From an uncultured Gammaproteobacteria bacterium (GTDB lineage: Bacteria; Patescibacteriota; Microgenomatia; Levybacterales; UBA12049): 64,000 nucleotides of DNA. Shown here piece after piece: positions 2,536-49,096 of this stretch. The translations under genes were made by a program, and so were the position numbers. Location of the stretch: assembly GCA_964491185.1 (NCBI GenBank), contig CAZBFH010000001.1, positions 16,739 to 80,738 on the forward strand, read 5' to 3'. A model generated the notes under the pieces. The model saw only the letters and a list, made by a program, of their open reading frames with translations. It did not search any database and was not told where the DNA came from. Positions within the stretch are counted from its first letter, which is position 1. Each line of letters begins with the position of its first letter.

Positions 2536-4218
2536 CTATTCGTCGGGAGCTATTCCATAATAAGTAAAAAGTTCTTTTGCAATCCCAAAGAATATTGGTG
2601 CAGCTGTCTCTGCACCGTAGATTCTAGCAGTTGGCCTGTCTAAAATCACTAACATAATGAATTTAGGATCATTTGCAGGCGCAAATCCTATAAATGAAGC
2701 TATAGTTTTGTTTGGGTCATATTTTCCCTCAACTGGGATAGAGGCGGTTCCAGTTTTTCCTGCTACTTTATACCCATCTATTTTTGCCCATTTAGCTTCT
2801 CCTTTATCAACTGCATTCACTAAAACCTGCGTCATCACTTTTGCTGTAGCTGGGCTAATAGGTTTTCCAATTTCCTTAGGTGGAATTTTGGTTACCTCTC
2901 CATGAACATCAGTAACAGAAGAAACAATATGTGGCTCCATCATGATTCCATTATTAGCTATGGACGAAAAAGCTGTTAAAAGTTCAATTGGAGTAATCGA
3001 GATTCCTTGTCCAAAACCAGTAGTTGCAAGATCTACTGCATACCAATTCTCTTTAGCTTTAATATCAGAAACTACTTCTCCCTGCAAGTCAATCCCAGTA
3101 AGTTTTCCTATTCCAAAGCGATCTAAATATTTCAACATTCGATCCAGGCCTAACTTTTGAGCCGTATAGACCATTCCAGTATTATCGGAATGCTGAATTA
3201 CTTCAAGCATAGTCGCATTTTCATAATATTCATCATTCCATGTATGAAGATCGTATCCGCCTACTGAAACTGGACCCGAGCAGATCGGACATTTACTTTG
3301 AGGTGTTAATAGTTTTTCATTAAAAGCAGCTGACATAACAAGAGGCTTAAAGGTAGAGCCAGGCTCATATAGATTTGTGACAAATGTATTCTTATATAAA
3401 TCACTTGAATATTCGCCGTATTTTGCAGGATCATACGTAGGAAAATTTGCCATCGTAATTATAGCACCCGTCGCTGGATCCATAATTCCCACCATTCCAC
3501 CTGCTGCTCCATATCTTTCAATTCCCTCCTTAAGCTTTTTTTCTGCCAGAAATTGTATTGAGCGATTAATATGAAGGTTTAAACTGCTCCCGTCAGTTCC
3601 AAAGGATTTCTCATTATCTACTCTTGCTAAAATTGGCCTACCTATAGCGTCGTGTATTTGAATCGCAGATCCATTTTTTCCCCTTAAAAGCCTATCATAG
3701 TATCCTTCAATTCCAGAATAACCTTTACTGCTGCCATTATCATCTTTTCCAACAAAACCTAAAAGATTTGCTGCCATTGAAGCCTCAGGATAAAATCTTT
3801 CAAATTGTTTTTCAAACCCAAGACCTAATATTTTTTCTTTTTCTATCTGCGCCCGAACCTGAGGATCGATTCCATGGGCAATTGGCACCCAAAAAAGATC
3901 TTGATCCAGCTGTGCACTGATTGATGCTTCATCAATTCCTAAACTCTGGGATAAAAATCTTGAAACTTGAGTTTTATTTTTTACTTCTTTGGGATTTGCA
4001 TATAAAAGATAGGTAATTTTATTCGCTGCAATAGGAAATCCATCAGAAGTCATAATTTCACCCCTTACGGGTTCAATTTTTATAGATTGCCCATACTGGA
4101 TTTGACCTAACTCAGATAGAGCTTCAGCCTTAACAACTTGCCAGTAGAAAAGACGAAGCAAAATAACCCCGAAAATTAAAGTAAAGAAAAGTAGAACTGT
4201 ACGATATCTTAAAATCAT
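2536..4218 (-). CDS. ftsI: Penicillin-binding protein transpeptidase (FtsI/PBP2-class)
   Basis: 560 aa. N-terminal TM helix. SxxK motif in PGSTFKPL, SxN in HSDNTG, KTGT in AGKTGTA. Position ftsL-ftsI-mur in the dcw cluster. Confidence 0.88.
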   Translation of the reverse strand: MILRYRTVLLFFTLIFGVILLRLFYWQVVKAEALSELGQIQYGQSIKIEPVRGEIMTSDGFPIAANKITYLLYANPKEVKNKTQVSRFLSQSLGIDEASISAQLDQDLFWVPIAHGIDPQVRAQIEKEKILGLGFEKQFERFYPEASMAANLLGFVGKDDNGSSKGYSGIEGYYDRLLRGKNGSAIQIHDAIGRPILARVDNEKSFGTDGSSLNLHINRSIQFLAEKKLKEGIERYGAAGGMVGIMDPATGAIITMANFPTYDPAKYGEYSSDLYKNTFVTNLYEPGSTFKPLVMSAAFNEKLLTPQSKCPICSGPVSVGGYDLHTWNDEYYENATMLEVIQHSDNTGMVYTAQKLGLDRMLKYLDRFGIGKLTGIDLQGEVVSDIKAKENWYAVDLATTGFGQGISITPIELLTAFSSIANNGIMMEPHIVSSVTDVHGEVTKIPPKEIGKPISPATAKVMTQVLVNAVDKGEAKWAKIDGYKVAGKTGTASIPVEGKYDPNKTIASFIGFAPANDPKFIMLVILDRPTARIYGAETAAPIFFGIAKELFTYYGIAPDE

Positions 4219-4499
4219 CTAAGAGATGCGATTGGCTTAGCCTTTGTTAGGGCAAAATTTGACTTACTGTCAACAAAGCCGATTCGCGCAGCTTCTGAAG
4301 CAACATGAGTTAGGGAGCTTAAGGAATAAATTTTTTCTCTTAAAATAACATTCTCAGTCCTAACCCTCACTAGCTCATCTTGAGTTTTTCCAAGAGCAAC
4401 TCCTTTTGTTGAAATTTTATTAGAAATTGCAGTTCGAGTTATAAATAGTCCTACAATTACTAATATTAAAATGGCTAAAACAAATATTGGTTTTTTCAT
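4215..4499 (-). CDS. ftsL: Cell division protein FtsL-like (septum formation initiator)
   Basis: 94 aa, single N-terminal TM helix then a coiled-coil-like segment. Lies between rsmH and ftsI with 4-nt overlaps on both sides. Confidence 0.5.
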   Translation of the reverse strand: MKKPIFVLAILILVIVGLFITRTAISNKISTKGVALGKTQDELVRVRTENVILREKIYSLSSLTHVASEAARIGFVDSKSNFALTKAKPIASLR

Positions 4500-5374
4500 A
4501 ACTTTTCAAATATCCTAAGCTTTGCGCTTTTACTCCTGCCATTTTCTTTAATTTCCTCTTGTGTTGGTAATATCGGTTTATCTGTTAAAATTTTCCCAAG
4601 TTTTTTTGCTTGAAATTCCAGGAATGCTCTTTTCACTATCCTGTCTTCCAGGGAGTGAAATGTGATTATCGCAATTCTTCCCTCATTCTCAAGTAAATCT
4701 AATGCCTTAGGAAGTGCTTCTTTTAAGCTTCCTAATTCGTCGTTAACCGCTATTCTTAATGCTTGAAATACTCTTTTTCCTGATGTTGCTCTTGCAAAGT
4801 CATTTACTGTCTTGAATCCATAAGCTGTTGCTAAGGTTAACGTTAAGTCGTCTGTAGTTTTAAATGGCGCTATCTTTCTTCTCTTAATAATTAAATCCGA
4901 AACTCTATTTGCATTTGTTTCTTCACCAAAATTTTTAAATAATTCTATGAGCTCACTTTTACCTAAGGCATTTACTAGATCGCTAGCCTTAACAGTTAAA
5001 TCTTTATCCATCCTCATGTCTAAGGGTCCAGGTAAAATGTATGAAAATCCCCTCTCCGGCGTATCAATCTGGTGTGAAGAAATTCCTAAATCAAAAAGAA
5101 TTCCCCATACCTTCTCAAATCCGTGTGCCCGAGCTACTGTGTCAATATTCCTGAAATTTCCCTTAGCGAGAATCAAGTTTTTACTATCAAGTCTAGCTTT
5201 AACAAAAGAGAGTGCTTCATCGTCCTGATCAATTCCCAGAACTACTCCACCACGGTTTAATAACTCTTCAGTGTGTCCACCGCCACCAAGAGTCGCATCA
5301 ATATATTTTCGACCCTTAGCAACATTCAATGCATTAATACCTTCATTTAAAAGTACAGATTTATGATATTTCAT
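4496..5374 (-). CDS. rsmH: 16S rRNA (cytosine1402-N4)-methyltransferase RsmH (MraW)
   Basis: 292 aa. GGGGHTEELL SAM-binding motif, FDLGISSHQ, IAIITFHSLEDR. Follows mraZ. Confidence 0.9.
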   Translation of the reverse strand: MKYHKSVLLNEGINALNVAKGRKYIDATLGGGGHTEELLNRGGVVLGIDQDDEALSFVKARLDSKNLILAKGNFRNIDTVARAHGFEKVWGILFDLGISSHQIDTPERGFSYILPGPLDMRMDKDLTVKASDLVNALGKSELIELFKNFGEETNANRVSDLIIKRRKIAPFKTTDDLTLTLATAYGFKTVNDFARATSGKRVFQALRIAVNDELGSLKEALPKALDLLENEGRIAIITFHSLEDRIVKRAFLEFQAKKLGKILTDKPILPTQEEIKENGRSKSAKLRIFEKL

Positions 5375-6377: not shown

Positions 6378-6854
6378 TTAAAGTTTTACGATTTTTTGGA
6401 CTTGGTACTCTTTTCCATCTTTCTTAGTGACTTTTAAGTTAATTGTGATATCTGAGGTTACATTATCATAACGGCATTTTCCAGCTGAACAAGTTCCAAA
6501 TTCTCTATAGTTGGTGTCTGTTCGTCCGTCTTTTCCGATTTCCATAATTCCGAAAATTCCTTCATTCGCAGTCTCACCCTCAACCTCTTTCTCATATTCA
6601 ATCGTATATTCAACTAATTCTATGTCCGAAGCTTTTGTGAGATCAAACATAAGAGCTTTATTGTCAGGCCTTATGGTTACTTCCATTCCTATATCTTCGG
6701 GGGTGAGAGTAGGCAAATCTGACTCTGTTATTTCATCAGATGGACGCTCCGAAGAAGAACCTTGCCTAGACCAGAGAAATACTCCTCCTACAACAGCAAG
6801 TATTAAAAATACAGCTACCGCTGCAATTAACTTTTTATTTTTTAATTGATTCAC
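6378..6854 (-). CDS. Hypothetical secreted/membrane-anchored protein
   Basis: 158 aa with an N-terminal hydrophobic helix (LIAAVAVFLILAVVGGVFLW). TTGACA -35 candidate at 6886-6891 (minus strand). Confidence 0.5.
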   Translation of the reverse strand: MNQLKNKKLIAAVAVFLILAVVGGVFLWSRQGSSSERPSDEITESDLPTLTPEDIGMEVTIRPDNKALMFDLTKASDIELVEYTIEYEKEVEGETANEGIFGIMEIGKDGRTDTNYREFGTCSAGKCRYDNVTSDITINLKVTKKDGKEYQVQKIVKL

Positions 6855-6903
6855 TAGATCTAGAATAAACGAAAAAACGACTTAATGTCAAGGATTCCTA
6901 ATC

Positions 6904-6936
6904 TTAGCCTCGCAAGGCCTGGCCTTGCGAGGCTAA
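6904..6936. repeat. Perfect 16-bp-arm palindrome (TTAGCCTCGCAAGGCC t GGCCTTGCGAGGCTAA). REP-like element and possible bidirectional terminator hairpin.
   Basis: Read directly: 6904-6919 is the exact reverse complement of 6921-6936. Lies in the 3' intergenic region after the gene ending at 6955. No U-tract immediately follows on either strand. Confidence 0.55.
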
Positions 6937-6954
6937 ATCCCAAACCATCTCTTG

Positions 6955-7398
6955 TTAAGCAATTTTAGCTACAGGAGGAAAAATGTCTGGAAATGCATTG
7001 GGAATTTCTCGAAGCGCTTCTTCTCCCCTAATTGGCTCATCTTTCCCTTCCATCATGAGCTCAATATCTGCAATCTTTATATCTGGATTTAATGTGGATC
7101 TAGAAATTTGCATAAATAAACTACTTGATCCTTCTTTAAGAGCAACAGCGTCAATTGGAATTATACCCGCGCGTTCGCGAATATCTCCAGAATAACCATA
7201 ACTTTTATTTTTGTGGTCAAAGAAAATTAAAGATGGATAAGGCTCACCTGTATTAACTCCATGCAAAGCATGTGCCGTGATTTGCCCTTGCGCTTCTGGA
7301 ATCATTTCAAGCCTGCTTCCTAATAACTCAATAGCCTCTTCTACCTTCTCAGGAAATGTTAATTGGGGTTTTTCTGCTACCGCAGTGCTTTCAGCCAT
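6955..7398 (-). CDS. Hypothetical protein
   Basis: 147-aa ORF. Its stop overlaps the glyS region, and the ORF starts where glyS ends (7398). Confidence 0.45.
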   Translation of the reverse strand: MAESTAVAEKPQLTFPEKVEEAIELLGSRLEMIPEAQGQITAHALHGVNTGEPYPSLIFFDHKNKSYGYSGDIRERAGIIPIDAVALKEGSSSLFMQISRSTLNPDIKIADIELMMEGKDEPIRGEEALREIPNAFPDIFPPVAKIA

Positions 7399-11950: not shown

Positions 11951-12003
11951 ATTGACAAAATGTGAAAGAAGAAGATCACGCAGTTAGTAACTAGTCAATC
12001 TTT

Positions 12004-12027
12004 CAAGGCCTCCCTGCGAGGCTAAAG
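12004..12027. repeat. Second copy of the GC-rich motif GGCCT(CCC)TGCGAGGCTAAA with short hairpin potential, directly after the stop of the priming transferase
   Basis: caaggcctccctgcgaggctaaag aligns with 6921-6937 (ggccttgcgaggctaaa). The gcctc/gaggc pair can form a 5-bp stem. Confidence 0.45.
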
Positions 12028-12687
12028 GGCGCCTTTCCCTGAAATCATGGCACCTGGGGTTTTCATAATTATAGACATATCATATGCAATTGATCTTTTC
12101 TTAACATACTCAGCATCCATTTTTATTCTTTTATCAAAATTTATCTCAGATCTTCCAGAAACCTGCCAATATCCAGTCACCCCAGGACGTACTGAAAGTA
12201 CAATTTTTACAGGCTCCCGAGTCTCCGGATATCTAACCTGTTGATCCCTAAGCTCATCTGGATAATATGCGCGAGGCCCAACAAGACTCATGTCACCTTT
12301 TAAAATATTAAAAAACTGAGGAACTTCATCAAGAGAATGCTTTCTAATAAAATGCCCAACATTTGTAATCCTTGGATCATCTTTTAACTTATAACTTCCT
12401 TTCTTATAATCCCTATACAGTTCTGCAAATTTAGGATTTTCCCGCAAAAGCTCATGAGCATTTTCAATCATGGAGCGGAATTTATACATCTTAAATAGCT
12501 TGCCGTTTTTTCCAACTCTCTCAGGAGTATCCGCCAAAACAGGCCCTTTTGAGTCAAGCTTAATGGCTATTGCAACTAAAATAATTATTGGGGAAAAGAT
12601 AACAATAAGAACAAGAGACAAAACTATATCTAGTAGTCTCTTAAAAAACTCATACAAAACACTTTTTCTGACTTCGATAATAGGCAT
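12022..12687 (-). CDS. Monotopic polyprenyl-phosphate phosphoglycosyltransferase (PglC/WbaP-C-terminal-like 'bacterial sugar transferase'). Priming enzyme.
   Basis: 221 aa. Re-entrant N-terminal helix, KFRSM motif, VGPRAYYPDE and PGVTGYWQVSGRSEINF, the PF02397 signature. Confidence 0.85.
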   Translation of the reverse strand: MPIIEVRKSVLYEFFKRLLDIVLSLVLIVIFSPIIILVAIAIKLDSKGPVLADTPERVGKNGKLFKMYKFRSMIENAHELLRENPKFAELYRDYKKGSYKLKDDPRITNVGHFIRKHSLDEVPQFFNILKGDMSLVGPRAYYPDELRDQQVRYPETREPVKIVLSVRPGVTGYWQVSGRSEINFDKRIKMDAEYVKKRSIAYDMSIIMKTPGAMISGKGAL

Positions 12688-12688
12688 A

Positions 12689-13762
12689 TTACGTAAGGTG
12701 TTCGTTGGGAGTTCCTGCGAGACTCTCTACTAACTTTTTAATTTTAGGAACAGAAGACTTAGGGCAAACCAAAACTACATCCTCAGTATTAATTACAAGC
12801 ATTTCCGATAAATCAATTCCTACAGTTAACTGGTTTGTGTAATTAAATACGAGGCTATCCCTAGAATCTTCTATCATGACTTTTCCCTTAGTCACATTTT
12901 CATCAACTTTTTCACTAAGCGCTTCTTTTAGAGCCTCCCACGCTCCAATATCACTCCACCCAATATCTACTGAAATTACTGAAATCTTACTTGTTGTAAA
13001 TTTCTCAAGTATTGCGTCGTCAAAACTAATCTTCTCAAGCGTTGGATAAATTTCATCAAGTGATTTTTCAAAATCTGAAGAGTCAACGATTTTGATAAGA
13101 TCCTCATACATTTGAGGCACAAATCTTTCAAATTTCTCAATCAGATAAGAAGGGGTTGTAACAAAATATCCTAAGTTCCAAACATAGTGTTCATCCTGAA
13201 AAAAGTCTTCAGCCTGAGACAGTTTTGGCCTATATTTAAGTTTTTTAAATTCTAACGCTCGAAGACCTTCCTCAGTCCAAAGCTCATCACCGCAATAAAT
13301 CCACCCTACATTTTGGTTTGCGAATCTGGGCTTTTGACCTATGAAAACAAAGTCTGATTTTCCATCAAGAATAGATTTTTCAGCCATACGAAGAGCTTTT
13401 TGAAAAATCTTAATCTCTCTAACCATATGATCACTCCAGATAATCGCCATGGGTTCGTTTGGGAATTTTTTATTAATTATGGCCGTTGTAAGTCCAATTG
13501 CAGGCCCAACATCTCTCATTTCGGGCTCAAAAATAAAATTATCTTTTGGAATCTCAGGGAGCTGCGAAATAACTATATCTTTATATCTTTTTCCAGTAGC
13601 GACATAAATATCTTGCGGGCTAAACTCCGGCTGAAGTCTTGCAACCGCATCTTGAAGAGTTGATTTGTCACCTATTAATTTTCCAAATTGCTTTGGAGTA
13701 TTCTTCCTTGATAGTGGCCAAAGCCTTGTTCCTACTCCTCCTGCGAAAATAACTACTTTCAT
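12689..13762 (-). CDS. manC: Mannose-1-phosphate guanylyltransferase (GDP-mannose pyrophosphorylase, no PMI domain)
   Basis: 357 aa. MKVVIFAGGVGTRLWPLSRKNTPKQF N-terminal nucleotidyltransferase motif typical of ManC. Confidence 0.78.
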   Translation of the reverse strand: MKVVIFAGGVGTRLWPLSRKNTPKQFGKLIGDKSTLQDAVARLQPEFSPQDIYVATGKRYKDIVISQLPEIPKDNFIFEPEMRDVGPAIGLTTAIINKKFPNEPMAIIWSDHMVREIKIFQKALRMAEKSILDGKSDFVFIGQKPRFANQNVGWIYCGDELWTEEGLRALEFKKLKYRPKLSQAEDFFQDEHYVWNLGYFVTTPSYLIEKFERFVPQMYEDLIKIVDSSDFEKSLDEIYPTLEKISFDDAILEKFTTSKISVISVDIGWSDIGAWEALKEALSEKVDENVTKGKVMIEDSRDSLVFNYTNQLTVGIDLSEMLVINTEDVVLVCPKSSVPKIKKLVESLAGTPNEHLT

Positions 13763-46603: not shown

Positions 46604-49096
46604 CTAAAGCTTTATGCGAGGCTTTAAAGTAACTGAATTTATTAAAATCTCAAACGGCCCGTCACCAAAGTCTAATGAGACATTTGTAAAATATTTTTTT
46701 AGATAATCACCACTTCCAGAATAAATTTCCCCTTCCGGTATTTCAGCATTTATTTTTTGATTTGCCAAACTAAATTTAAATGGAAAATATAAGTATTGAT
46801 AGTTCTGAACAGATCCTGTTTTATTCGTTTCCCACGTTAATTTTGCCCAAAAAGTATCAAGTCCGATTTTATGCAAATATTCTAGGTCTTGATGTCCATT
46901 CATAAAATCAAACATATTTACCATATCCTTGAATAATCTACTCCTATCACTATAAAGACCGACTATATCATTTGAAGAAGAATTGATAACTTCGAATTCA
47001 TCAATAGCTACAAAATCTCCTCCTGAAGTTGTATGAATCTCCATTTTTACGTATCTCGCAATAACAGGATCGAAGGAATCAATTTTTTCAAAAACAGTAG
47101 AATTTTTTACATCTATAACTTTTTTCCAATTCTTGTTGTCCCTAGAAACTGAAACTGAATATGTTGCAGGAATTCTCGTAGATTTCTCTAATGATCCCCA
47201 TGACACTGCAGAAATTTCCTTCTCCATTCCCAAATCCACCTGTATCCAAGGCACGAATGAGTCTGCAATCCACATGGATCTCTTACCCGGATTCCCATCA
47301 ATTAAATTTTTAGGCAAAACGTGAAAGAAGGGTTCTCCCTCTCTTTGAGACATTGTGTATGCTGTTTTTACTTTCACAGTTTTAAGATACTCATTTCTCT
47401 GAAGAGAGTAATTTGCTAATGCTCTAAACTTCTGGCTGTCTGGATTTCTTCCAATAACACTCAAAACCTCAAAAGCACTTAAATCCATATCCAAATTATA
47501 TGGCAAATCGACAACTGGACCCTGGAAATTAGAACTCTTGTAAACATTGTCAAATTTATTAATACTGATTTGATAATTTTTTTGGTTTAAGAGTAATTTT
47601 TTTGTTCTTTCAGTTTCATTAATTAATCCATTACTCAAACTGTGATCTAAAAAAACGACATCATTAATATTCACCTTGCCATTTTTTACTTTTGAAAGAA
47701 CCGCAATAAGCTGAGATTCAACTCTAAAAGGCTCATCTTCAAGATTTGAGTACTTTTTATCTTTAATCGTAAACCACTCCAAAAGATAATCTCCTAAAGC
47801 AGGAGCATGCGGATATAAATAAAAAGTAGTATTGTCAGAAAGTTTTGGAAAATATGAATTAAATTTTGTATAAAAACCTTTGGCTGGCTTGTAAAAATCT
47901 ACATACACTTCCCTTTCAATTTTCCATATTAAAATAAGATTAACAACCACAACTACTGCAACGAATAATTTTAATAGCTTTAAATTCGTAAAATAATTGA
48001 TTAAAATTATTCCCAAGAGAACACTGGTTCCTAAGAATGCAAAATACCTATAACGCATTGTGTTGTATTCATATGCTCGCGATAAAACCTCCGGAGTACT
48101 AGGAACAGCAAGTGAAACAAATACTGAGAACAGCCCTAACCAAATTAAGAAAAATAAAAATATTCTAAAATATGCTTTAGATTTTTTCAGTTTTAGCCAA
48201 ATCAATCCAAATAATCCAACGGTCATCCATCCAACAGCTGGAAAAAAGTATTTATTCATTGTTTCGTAATAAACAAACTTCGAACCTTGTTCCCTTAAAT
48301 AGTTCATAAGATCATATGGAATAATTTGCGGTGGAATTAGTTTTCCAATCGTGAGAAATGCAGCCTTAGCATACTCAAAATACAATCCATCACTCATAAA
48401 CCTCATTTGGAGCTTTACATTCCCATCAGCTGTATCTCCCGGAGTACCCCCATATAAGGATCTAATTAAAAAGAATCCCAGGATTATTAACGCGAATGGA
48501 ATTTGTCTTTTTACAATTCCCAAGATTTCTTTTTGTGAAAAAATATTTTTTGTAAAAATGACATCCATTGCAAAAATTAGAGGAATTAATACAATTCCTG
48601 TCTCTCTGACAAAAAATCCCAAAAAAGCTGAAAGAAGAGAAAGAACAAGCATTCTTTTATCATTTTTTTCTTTATATTTAAAAAATGCAGTTAAGCTTAT
48701 AAGTAAACAGATTAGGAGTAATGGATAATAAGAATTAAAGCTTCCCCAAGTGAGAACGTCGTTATAACAAGTGGTGACAGTGAAAATTAACGAGGAAATA
48801 AATGCAAGTTGTCTCTTTTTCGAAATCGTATATATAAATTTATAGAATAGAAGATAGGCAATTACTTGAACAATTAAAGCTGTTAAATACCATCCCCAAG
48901 GATTCCAACCAAATATTTTCCAGTCCAGAAAATATAAAAATCCATGACCTTTGATTAAATTTACTACCGTGTATGGAGCAATACCCGTTAACCACGTAGC
49001 TTCATACGCCTTAAAAAACCAAAAATTTAGTGTTGGGAACCAAGCTAGTACTCCAAGAAACGCAATAATTAAGTAATTCCTTTTATCTGGATTCAT
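46604..49096 (-). CDS. Polytopic membrane protein (GT-C-like) with C-terminal extracytoplasmic F5/8 type C (discoidin) carbohydrate-binding domain
   Basis: 830 aa. About 13 N-terminal TM helices. C-terminal NLIDGNPGKRSMWIADSFVPWIQVDLGMEKEISAVSWGS matches the discoidin signature (W..........WIQVDLG....I..V). Confidence 0.5.
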   Translation of the reverse strand: MNPDKRNYLIIAFLGVLAWFPTLNFWFFKAYEATWLTGIAPYTVVNLIKGHGFLYFLDWKIFGWNPWGWYLTALIVQVIAYLLFYKFIYTISKKRQLAFISSLIFTVTTCYNDVLTWGSFNSYYPLLLICLLISLTAFFKYKEKNDKRMLVLSLLSAFLGFFVRETGIVLIPLIFAMDVIFTKNIFSQKEILGIVKRQIPFALIILGFFLIRSLYGGTPGDTADGNVKLQMRFMSDGLYFEYAKAAFLTIGKLIPPQIIPYDLMNYLREQGSKFVYYETMNKYFFPAVGWMTVGLFGLIWLKLKKSKAYFRIFLFFLIWLGLFSVFVSLAVPSTPEVLSRAYEYNTMRYRYFAFLGTSVLLGIILINYFTNLKLLKLFVAVVVVVNLILIWKIEREVYVDFYKPAKGFYTKFNSYFPKLSDNTTFYLYPHAPALGDYLLEWFTIKDKKYSNLEDEPFRVESQLIAVLSKVKNGKVNINDVVFLDHSLSNGLINETERTKKLLLNQKNYQISINKFDNVYKSSNFQGPVVDLPYNLDMDLSAFEVLSVIGRNPDSQKFRALANYSLQRNEYLKTVKVKTAYTMSQREGEPFFHVLPKNLIDGNPGKRSMWIADSFVPWIQVDLGMEKEISAVSWGSLEKSTRIPATYSVSVSRDNKNWKKVIDVKNSTVFEKIDSFDPVIARYVKMEIHTTSGGDFVAIDEFEVINSSSNDIVGLYSDRSRLFKDMVNMFDFMNGHQDLEYLHKIGLDTFWAKLTWETNKTGSVQNYQYLYFPFKFSLANQKINAEIPEGEIYSGSGDYLKKYFTNVSLDFGDGPFEILINSVTLKPRIKL

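Follow-up and report, generated by a model that had tools for sequence, protein, structure and literature searches.

A REP-type palindrome in a Microgenomates-group Patescibacteria genome, probably spread by a RAYT-like Y1 transposase

The perfect GC-rich palindrome found at positions 6904–6936 of the 64-kb stretch of DNA analysed here as a whole (the window) belongs to a family of short hairpin repeats which is dispersed among Microgenomates-group Patescibacteria and which, in related genomes, flanks a gene for a Y1/HUH transposase. The palindrome is probably a REP of this family that was spread in trans by a RAYT, and the probability of this reading is estimated at about 0.8. The preliminary description of the window had offered a REP-like repeat as one of several options, and this option is supported by the RAYT-like Y1 gene which the family flanks, by the clustering of copies at gene 3′ ends, and by the absence of the element from the orthologous sites of close relatives. 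REP/RAYT is a known kind of element that apparently has not yet been described in this lineage, since none of the papers in the literature searched connects REP/RAYT with Patescibacteria or with the candidate phyla radiation.

Structure and Setting of the Window Copies

The arms of the palindrome, TTAGCCTCGCAAGGCC and GGCCTTGCGAGGCTAA, are 16 nt each, separated by one central base and complementary at all 16 nt, exactly as had been claimed. Read on the minus strand the element is TTTAG-CCTCGCAAGG-CCAGG-CCTTGCGAGG-CTAAG and agrees with the family consensus at 26 of 26 positions. Folding, which had been proposed as a check, yielded a hairpin with a 15-bp stem and a 3-nt loop that is stable far beyond shuffled sequences, both as RNA (−28.2 kcal/mol, z −6.8) and as single-stranded DNA (−18.8 kcal/mol, z −8.5). 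No other perfect GC-rich hairpin of at least 8 bp occurs in the window. At 33–35 nt the palindrome has the size and form expected of REPs, namely a GC-rich palindrome of 20–40 nt folding into a stem-loop.

The palindrome is intergenic, and every real gene in its neighbourhood is encoded on the minus strand. The stop codon of a 147-aa ORF, which comes after the glycyl-tRNA synthetase (GlyRS) gene, is situated 19 nt upstream, and a promoter-like site preceding a 158-aa ORF (6378–6854, minus strand) starts 13 nt downstream (Table 1). Neither of these two ORFs matched a Pfam or NCBIfam family. The only homologues of the 147-aa protein were near-identical members of its own 90% cluster, so it was of no use for wider synteny, and syntenic relatives were reached through the cluster members. 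No tRNA or tmRNA genes and no Rfam matches were found in the whole window, and the Rfam search of the window and of the palindromes from 18 loci, at gathering and at permissive thresholds, returned no family beyond miRNA/snoRNA noise with E > 0.1. The region 12000–64000 consists of approximately 50 kb of genes, nearly all on the minus strand, with several glycan- and sugar-transfer domains (Bac_transf, NTP_transferase, PMT_2 with an F5/8 type C domain, and DUF4012).

Table 1: Coordinates of the palindrome copies and neighbouring features in the window and in other loci (L numbers).
Feature	Location	Strand	Remarks
Intact REP-type palindrome	window 6903–6937	.	arms 6904–6919 and 6921–6936
147-aa orphan ORF	window 6955–7398	-	last gene of the GlyRS unit; from the ORF list
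Promoter-like site TTGACA-18-TATTCT	window 6862–6891	-	consensus scan 10/12; hexamers kept in relative L243
Decayed copy (REP-type)	window 11997–12026	-	TTTAGCCTCGCAGGG (12026–12012), AGG, CCTTGAAAGATT (12008–11997)
Bac_transf (PglC-like) gene	window 12022–12687	-	Pfam PF02397, E 3e-63; stop inside the decayed copy
Third in-frame copies in RAYT-like genes	L102 4053–4081; L135 4373–4401; L148 837–865; L168 566–594; L176 4463–4491; L199 1062–1090; L208 481–509		
CopA copy	L189 3352–3380		ORF 2661–4973, minus strand
Other CopA copies	L159 1704–1732; L225 9346–9374		decayed in L241 and L242; REP-less orthologue in L240

The second copy in the window is decayed: one arm is matched at 14 of 15 positions and the other at 8 of 12, the centre is 2 nt shorter, and the sequence folds no better than shuffles either as RNA or as DNA. 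The site is an exact match to TTTAGCCTCGCARGG, the pattern used in the genome scan described below, and its TAG (12024–12022) serves the PglC-like gene as stop codon. Thus the recurrence that had been reported at 12007–12027 directly after this stop is a real relative of the palindrome, but it overlaps the TAG rather than lying beyond it.

The other reported matches did not hold. The copy said to span the stop of the 830-aa gene at 46615–46629 is a bare 9-mer (46615–46623, codons K-P-R-I) that lies inside the ORF, 9–18 nt before the stop codon (46604–46606) and so not across it, and has no second arm, and the weaker variant near 12708 likewise has no partner arm; both are at chance level. In a first-order Markov simulation of the window approximately 1.0 match to any 9-mer of the 16-nt arm was expected per simulated window, with a 0.53 probability of at least one, so the lone 9-mer matches at 46615, 6369, and 62928 carry no weight, and these three, together with the one near 12708, were dropped as chance-level fragments. 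The 9-mer TGCGAGGCT itself occurs four times over both strands of the window (0.09 expected), and two of these occurrences are the palindrome's own arms. The earlier count of a 9-mer found three times in 64 kb with about 0.06 expected is an over-count. Of the four copies claimed, two are not real, and there is no series of elements punctuating operons, the window containing one intact and one decayed copy per 64 kb, a count which applies to the window only.

Distribution of the Repeat Family

The family follows the pattern (T)TAG-CCTCGCAAGG-N5-CCTTGCGAGG-CTA(A), and more than 140 near-exact copies were recovered from Patescibacteria (Microgenomates) genomes and groundwater metagenomes, none being predicted by chance. 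The exact scan for the 15-mer TTTAGCCTCGCARGG in one genome per species gave at least 120 stretches, most of them chance 15-mers in unrelated bacteria. Among the genome matches listed, about 35 stretches hold the complete dyad TAGCCTCGCAAGG-N5-CCTTGCGAGGCTA, whose 5-nt centre varies, with at least 36 copies in all. They come from Levy-, Davies-, and Shapirobacteria, from other MAGs of Patescibacteria/Microgenomates, and from TPA MAGs of low GC content that are labelled “uncultured Gammaproteobacteria”. The metagenome scan for the exact dyad of 24 specified bases returned 110 stretches, many from groundwater, where practically none would be expected by chance; the scan of viral contigs returned zero copies and so gave no sign of carriage by phages. 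In the Shapirobacteria MAG PEZH01 copies were found on 4 contigs.

Alignment of 122 exact copies defined the conserved block (t)(t)T-AGCCTCGCAAGG-N5-CCTTGCGAGGCT-A(a), with T at position −1 in 101 copies and A at position +1 in 109, and conservation ends 3 nt outside the arms. The 5-nt centres of these copies fall into a few classes, each seen in both orientations. Compensatory arm variants (AGCTTCGCAAGG/CCTTGCGAAGCT and AGCTTTGCAAGG/CCTTGCAAAGCT) point to a constraint on the hairpin.

The TPA MAGs titled “uncultured Gammaproteobacteria bacterium” that contain the repeat (37–42% GC) comprise L009, L012, L024, L025, L031, L033, L039, L041, L047, L091, L111, and L116; the palindrome of L033 is identical to that of the window, the RAYT of L041 is 100% identical to that of the Hainich groundwater contig L204, and the genes at some of these loci include RibD, with an FMN riboswitch, and citrate synthase. 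Unless the labels are unreliable, the family crosses phyla.

Partner Transposase

Between two copies of the palindrome in L014, L041, and L102 there is an ORF of 221–238 aa which belongs to the Pfam family Y1_Tnp (IS200-like; PF01797), scoring 45–52 bits against a cut-off of 23. The tblastn search found this protein in 22 palindrome-bearing loci, and in nearly all of them each end of the gene has a copy no more than tens of nucleotides away. In order to avoid selection bias, three further loci (L235/L236, L237/L238, and L239) were picked by protein homology alone, and the palindrome was present at the Y1 gene in all three, on both sides in L235/L236 and L237/L238; two of the three carry the compensatory variant AGCTTCGCAAGG...CCTTGCGAAGCT. 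The same repeat flanking a RAYT gene, the arrangement known as a REPtron, is consequently found in relatives (22 + 3 loci) and not inside the window, where no Y1/RAYT homologue was detected in the 64 kb.

The protein family is large, with at least 7,994 clusters at E ≤ 1e-10, and among the source names are “transposase [Patescibacteria group bacterium]”, Levybacteria, Daviesbacteria, and the JGI name “REP element-mobilizing transposase RayT”. The HUH motif NHFHF (HFH) and the tyrosine motif YIH(K/R)(Q/N) are invariant in the alignments, as is expected of a RAYT with a Y1_Tnp domain. The sole NCBIfam hit was REP_Tyr_transpos (NF047646), with 32–40 bits against a cut-off of 80, which places these proteins in a distant clade outside the equivalog itself. 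A PDB search with the protein and its profile gave marginal results only (E about 0.15 to ISDra2). The AlphaFold model (pLDDT 82.5) had 4ER8_A, the E. coli REP-associated transposase in complex with a REP hairpin, as its top Foldseek match in the PDB, with E 8e-5 and a target-normalised TM-score of 0.58, followed by the IS608, ISDra2, and IS200 transposases; on the basis of this model the predicted fold is closest to that of the solved TnpA-REP. In L175 the palindrome on either side of a Y1 gene whose product is 36% identical is a different one, TACACCTTCCAGGTGTA, so that the repeat changes together with the protein clade. The copies of this palindrome at L175 3668–3698 and 4408–4438 are inverted and recur in L223, and this looks like a second REP/RAYT pair from a similar community.

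Several further features of the RAYT-like genes were observed. Most of them have a third palindrome in frame right after the catalytic YIHKQ, read as ALASQGxALRGW (Table 1). Its distances to the two flanking copies are fixed, 536 nt to the upstream copy and about 203 nt to the downstream copy, and the RAYTs of L041 and L177, which have no third copy, are 7-8 residues shorter at this place. Upstream of the RAYT gene of L239 (7792–7851) three tandem repeats of the left half-arm GCTAGCTTCGCAAGT, with a period of 15 nt, precede the full palindrome.

The tight bracketing of the Y1 gene also suggests another reading, namely that the palindromes are the subterminal hairpins at the left and right ends of an autonomous insertion sequence of the IS200/IS605 type, that the Y1 gene travels together with its flanks, and that solitary copies such as that of the window are what excision or deletion of the element left behind and were not mobilised in trans. 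Its probability is low. It would agree with the loop orientation that the two flanking copies share in L102, L148, L158, and L199, as the ends of IS200/IS605 elements do, with the IS transposases being the next-best fold matches, and with the apparent scarcity of dispersed copies near RAYT loci, none being found away from the gene in L235–L239 (14–21 kb each). However, the solitary copies retain just the hairpin of approximately 33 nt and no adjoining IS sequence, and about 150 palindrome-bearing loci stand against 22 with the Y1 gene. The orientation of the flanking copies varies from locus to locus and is not consistently inverted, and TnpA-REP is a better structural match than the IS transposases. 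Almost all clusters of the Y1 protein were located on one to three contigs, which, with 8–20 kb of each genome read, is only suggestive of a single copy but also speaks against an autonomous element. An integron attC site was dropped as a candidate because the unit falls short of the length of an attC and the Y1 gene accounts for the spacing, and a CRISPR was dropped because there is no array.

Placement Relative to Genes and Comparison with Relatives

Among the family copies with at most two mismatches 107 of 158 are intergenic, and about one-third lie in coding sequence. The proposed check for enrichment at gene 3′ ends was run family-wide and bore the idea out: a copy is located within 10 nt of 35 of the 101 neighbouring gene 3′ ends versus 6 of the 87 gene 5′ ends. 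The stop codons adjacent to copies are TAG in 63% of cases against a background of 22%, and in 19 cases the element's own TAG serves as the stop. According to Di Nocera et al. (2013, PMC3733652), REPs favour sites downstream of ORFs and their termini can supply a TAG stop; the present family behaves in the same way, the decayed window copy giving the stop of the PglC-like gene. Placement beside RNA genes was also seen: in L119 (3423–3453) only 3 nt separate a copy from the 3′ end of a tRNA gene, and 8 nt separate it from a convergent ORF, and in L063 (4554–4584) a copy overlaps the stop of a ComF-like ORF and has a tmRNA gene 70 nt downstream of it.

The syntenic relatives L243–L246 have 82–89% nucleotide identity to the window and are without the element at both window sites (L243 and L244 at 6904–6936; L243, L245, and L246 at 11997–12026). 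Such presence/absence polymorphism is expected of REPs and indicates a recent, lineage-specific gain. After the 147-aa ORF the relatives have a stretch of approximately 100 nt that contains a U14 tract and another GC-rich hairpin (CCTGCCTGCCGGCAGGCAGG); they share with the window the end of the flanking gene and the TTGACA/TATTCT promoter-like site. In L243 (6445–6565, the ortholog of window 6855–6954) the palindrome CCTGCCTGCCGGCAGGCAGG lies within a long fold which is followed by U14, and it may represent another repeat family or an ancestral terminator. At the second site the sugar transferase of the relatives ends with GCC CTC TA(G/A), the spacer follows directly, and about 20 nt of the window are absent; the window reads GCC CTT TAG CCTCGCAGGGAGGCCTTGAA. 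The element was thus gained in register with the pre-existing stop of the sugar transferase. The strain contigs L001–L003, which are 98.9% identical to the window, have a G.G mismatch in the middle of the stem, so strong selection on the hairpin is unlikely.

This last observation bears on the view, also raised in the preliminary description, that the palindrome is a terminator or mRNA-stabilising hairpin evolved by the host, with no mobile history and with its likeness to other copies due to selection for a good stem, which we consider very improbable. The location between a stop codon and a promoter-like site, the different hairpin with U14 found at the same place in relatives, and the very high stability of the RNA hairpin fit this view, but sister strains tolerate the mismatch, about one-third of family copies are inside coding sequences, and the family has a specific link with a Y1 transposase. 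Besides, the GC-rich hairpin is followed by no U tract on either strand, the mRNA strand 3′ of it reading GAUUAGGAAUCC, and it is therefore not a canonical intrinsic terminator; the terminator scan of the window missed it because of the absent T tract. Finally, the identical 26-nt arm sequence is found in hundreds of unrelated loci and lineages, a recurrence impossible by convergence, which excludes a host-evolved terminator as the origin.

The binding site of the regulator HrcA, CIRCE, which stands upstream of chaperone genes, is TTAGCACTC-N9-GAGTGCTAA, and the ends TTAGC...GCTAA of the palindrome recall it. That the palindrome is a CIRCE-like operator of a dimeric transcription factor, as its perfect dyad just upstream of a −35-like hexamer and these outer bases might suggest, is hardly credible, since its spacing and inner sequence are unlike those of CIRCE, the central 5 nt vary freely as in a hairpin loop, and the copies stand in ORFs and at 3′ rather than 5′ ends beside genes that are unrelated across loci and include no chaperones, the window neighbours being orphan ORFs, GlyRS, and a sugar transferase. 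Placement beside unrelated genes and within coding sequences thus gives no support to the protein-binding site proposed earlier.

Copies inside Genes

The intragenic copies are in frame in long ORFs, where they read as LASQGxxLRG[WY] or xSLARxxLARL, and the host genes include CopA, TopA, MgsA, TGT, RibD, Fmt, and glycosyltransferases. In CopA the segment from the GNxxLM motif to GKT comprises 20-21 aa in 113 of 114 close homologues with both motifs, whether the repeat is present or not, and the lone outlier of 50 residues is due to a match to an upstream GN. The CopA repeat of 31–33 nt occupies the place of 11 unrelated codons in a 76%-identical orthologue with the length unchanged, and the REP-bearing CopAs are not mutual closest relatives. 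Similarly, MgsA (L165) and TGT (L025) have no gain of 11 residues in comparison with solved homologues, and the PDB search with the Fmt example gave no match at the chosen threshold.

The copies in genes may have arisen by insertion and a subsequent selected deletion, by template-switch completion of a half-site, or by cut-and-replace. The speculation may be extended to the whole family, which would then be written into genomes by length-preserving replacement, that is, cut-and-replace or conversion by the Y1 enzyme. Its starting points are the CopA copies and the third, in-frame copy of most RAYT genes. This proposal is tentative and has a small though appreciable chance of being correct; we know of no description of such a mode of propagation in REP/RAYT systems. 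If true, it would explain how one arm sequence has stayed identical across a class of ultra-small bacteria. Apart from the repeat, the CopA-like protein of L189 has at residues about 553–575 a segment of approximately 22 residues (HPRPDRGSMDSRLRGNDNNGRME) that is absent from all close CopA homologues and may be encoded by an inserted repeat of another kind.

Comparison with Known Systems

To our knowledge, REP/RAYT systems have been studied almost entirely in Proteobacteria. In the E. coli system (TnpA-REP/YafM, 4ER8) and in Pseudomonas REPINs a short GC-rich hairpin likewise brackets a Y1/HUH gene, and the present family resembles them in the location of copies downstream of genes, often at a TAG stop, in the presence of some intragenic copies, in the co-variation of transposase clade and repeat, and in the predicted 4ER8-like fold. 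There are also differences. One end of a REP bears a conserved tetranucleotide, GTAG or CGTC (Di Nocera et al. 2013, PMC3733652), whereas this family has TAG/CTA at both ends of a perfect dyad and does not show the one-sided GTAG/CGTC tag. REP doublets (REPINs) were not seen in the family, and its apparent copy number is low, with one intact and one decayed copy in the window and none dispersed at L235–L239, in contrast to the high copy number which is a hallmark of classical REPs. Moreover, one arm sequence is common to genomes labelled Levy-, Davies-, and Shapirobacteria with transposases 55–70% identical, most RAYT genes of the family hold an in-frame copy of the repeat, and the proteins score below the NCBIfam RAYT cut-off.

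With elements of the IS200/IS605 group (IS608, ISDra2) the family shares the predicted Y1/HUH fold, the presumed recognition of hairpins on single-stranded DNA, and placement beside a short specific target, as its copies abut (T)TAG; in contrast, its solitary hairpins greatly exceed the transposase genes in number, no TnpB partner was seen, and the protein of 220–240 aa has a C-terminal extension. Rickettsia palindromic elements (RPEs) and intragenic REPs are similar in their in-frame presence in housekeeping genes. RPEs add 30–50 residues to proteins, whereas in CopA 11 REP codons replace 11 native codons at the same length, and the window copies are not intragenic. The likeness to rho-independent terminators consists in a GC-rich stem-loop right after a gene, in a spacer which in relatives contains a hairpin with U14, but the family has no U tract and its sequence is conserved across loci, which is not the case for terminators.

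Proposed Mechanism and Significance

In the mechanism which we propose, the unit of approximately 33 nt would fold into a hairpin on single-stranded DNA, and a cognate Y1/HUH RAYT, which would be encoded elsewhere in this genome between copies of the same palindrome, would recognise and cut it. The enzyme would then spread copies in trans with a preference for sites beside (T)TAG, and this preference would account for the frequent coincidence of copies with TAG stop codons. In E. coli the recognition of the REP hairpin on single-stranded DNA by TnpA-REP has reportedly been established in vitro. The intact window copy, between the 147-aa ORF and the next promoter-like site, would be young, and the copy at the PglC-like stop would be old and decayed. 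When transcribed, the intact copy would form a hairpin of −28 kcal/mol at the 3′ end of the GlyRS/147-aa message, where, to judge from its position, it probably acts as a partial barrier to read-through or a block to 3′-exonucleases; since it stands where the relatives have a spacer with a hairpin and a U tract, such a secondary role in termination or 3′ protection is plausible.

In summary, a palindrome without explanation can now be placed in a defined mobile-element system, and REP/RAYT is probably to be extended to the reduced genomes of Patescibacteria, where the partner transposase accounts for at least 7,994 (about 8,000) protein clusters. For genome annotation it is relevant that copies create TAG stops or lie across them, and that housekeeping proteins acquire LASQG..LRGW or SLAR..LARL peptides from them. 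The length-neutral copies inside genes pose a concrete mechanistic question, and the pair of a compact, sequence-invariant hairpin and its transposase is well suited to the study of how RAYTs recognise REPs and how REPs move.
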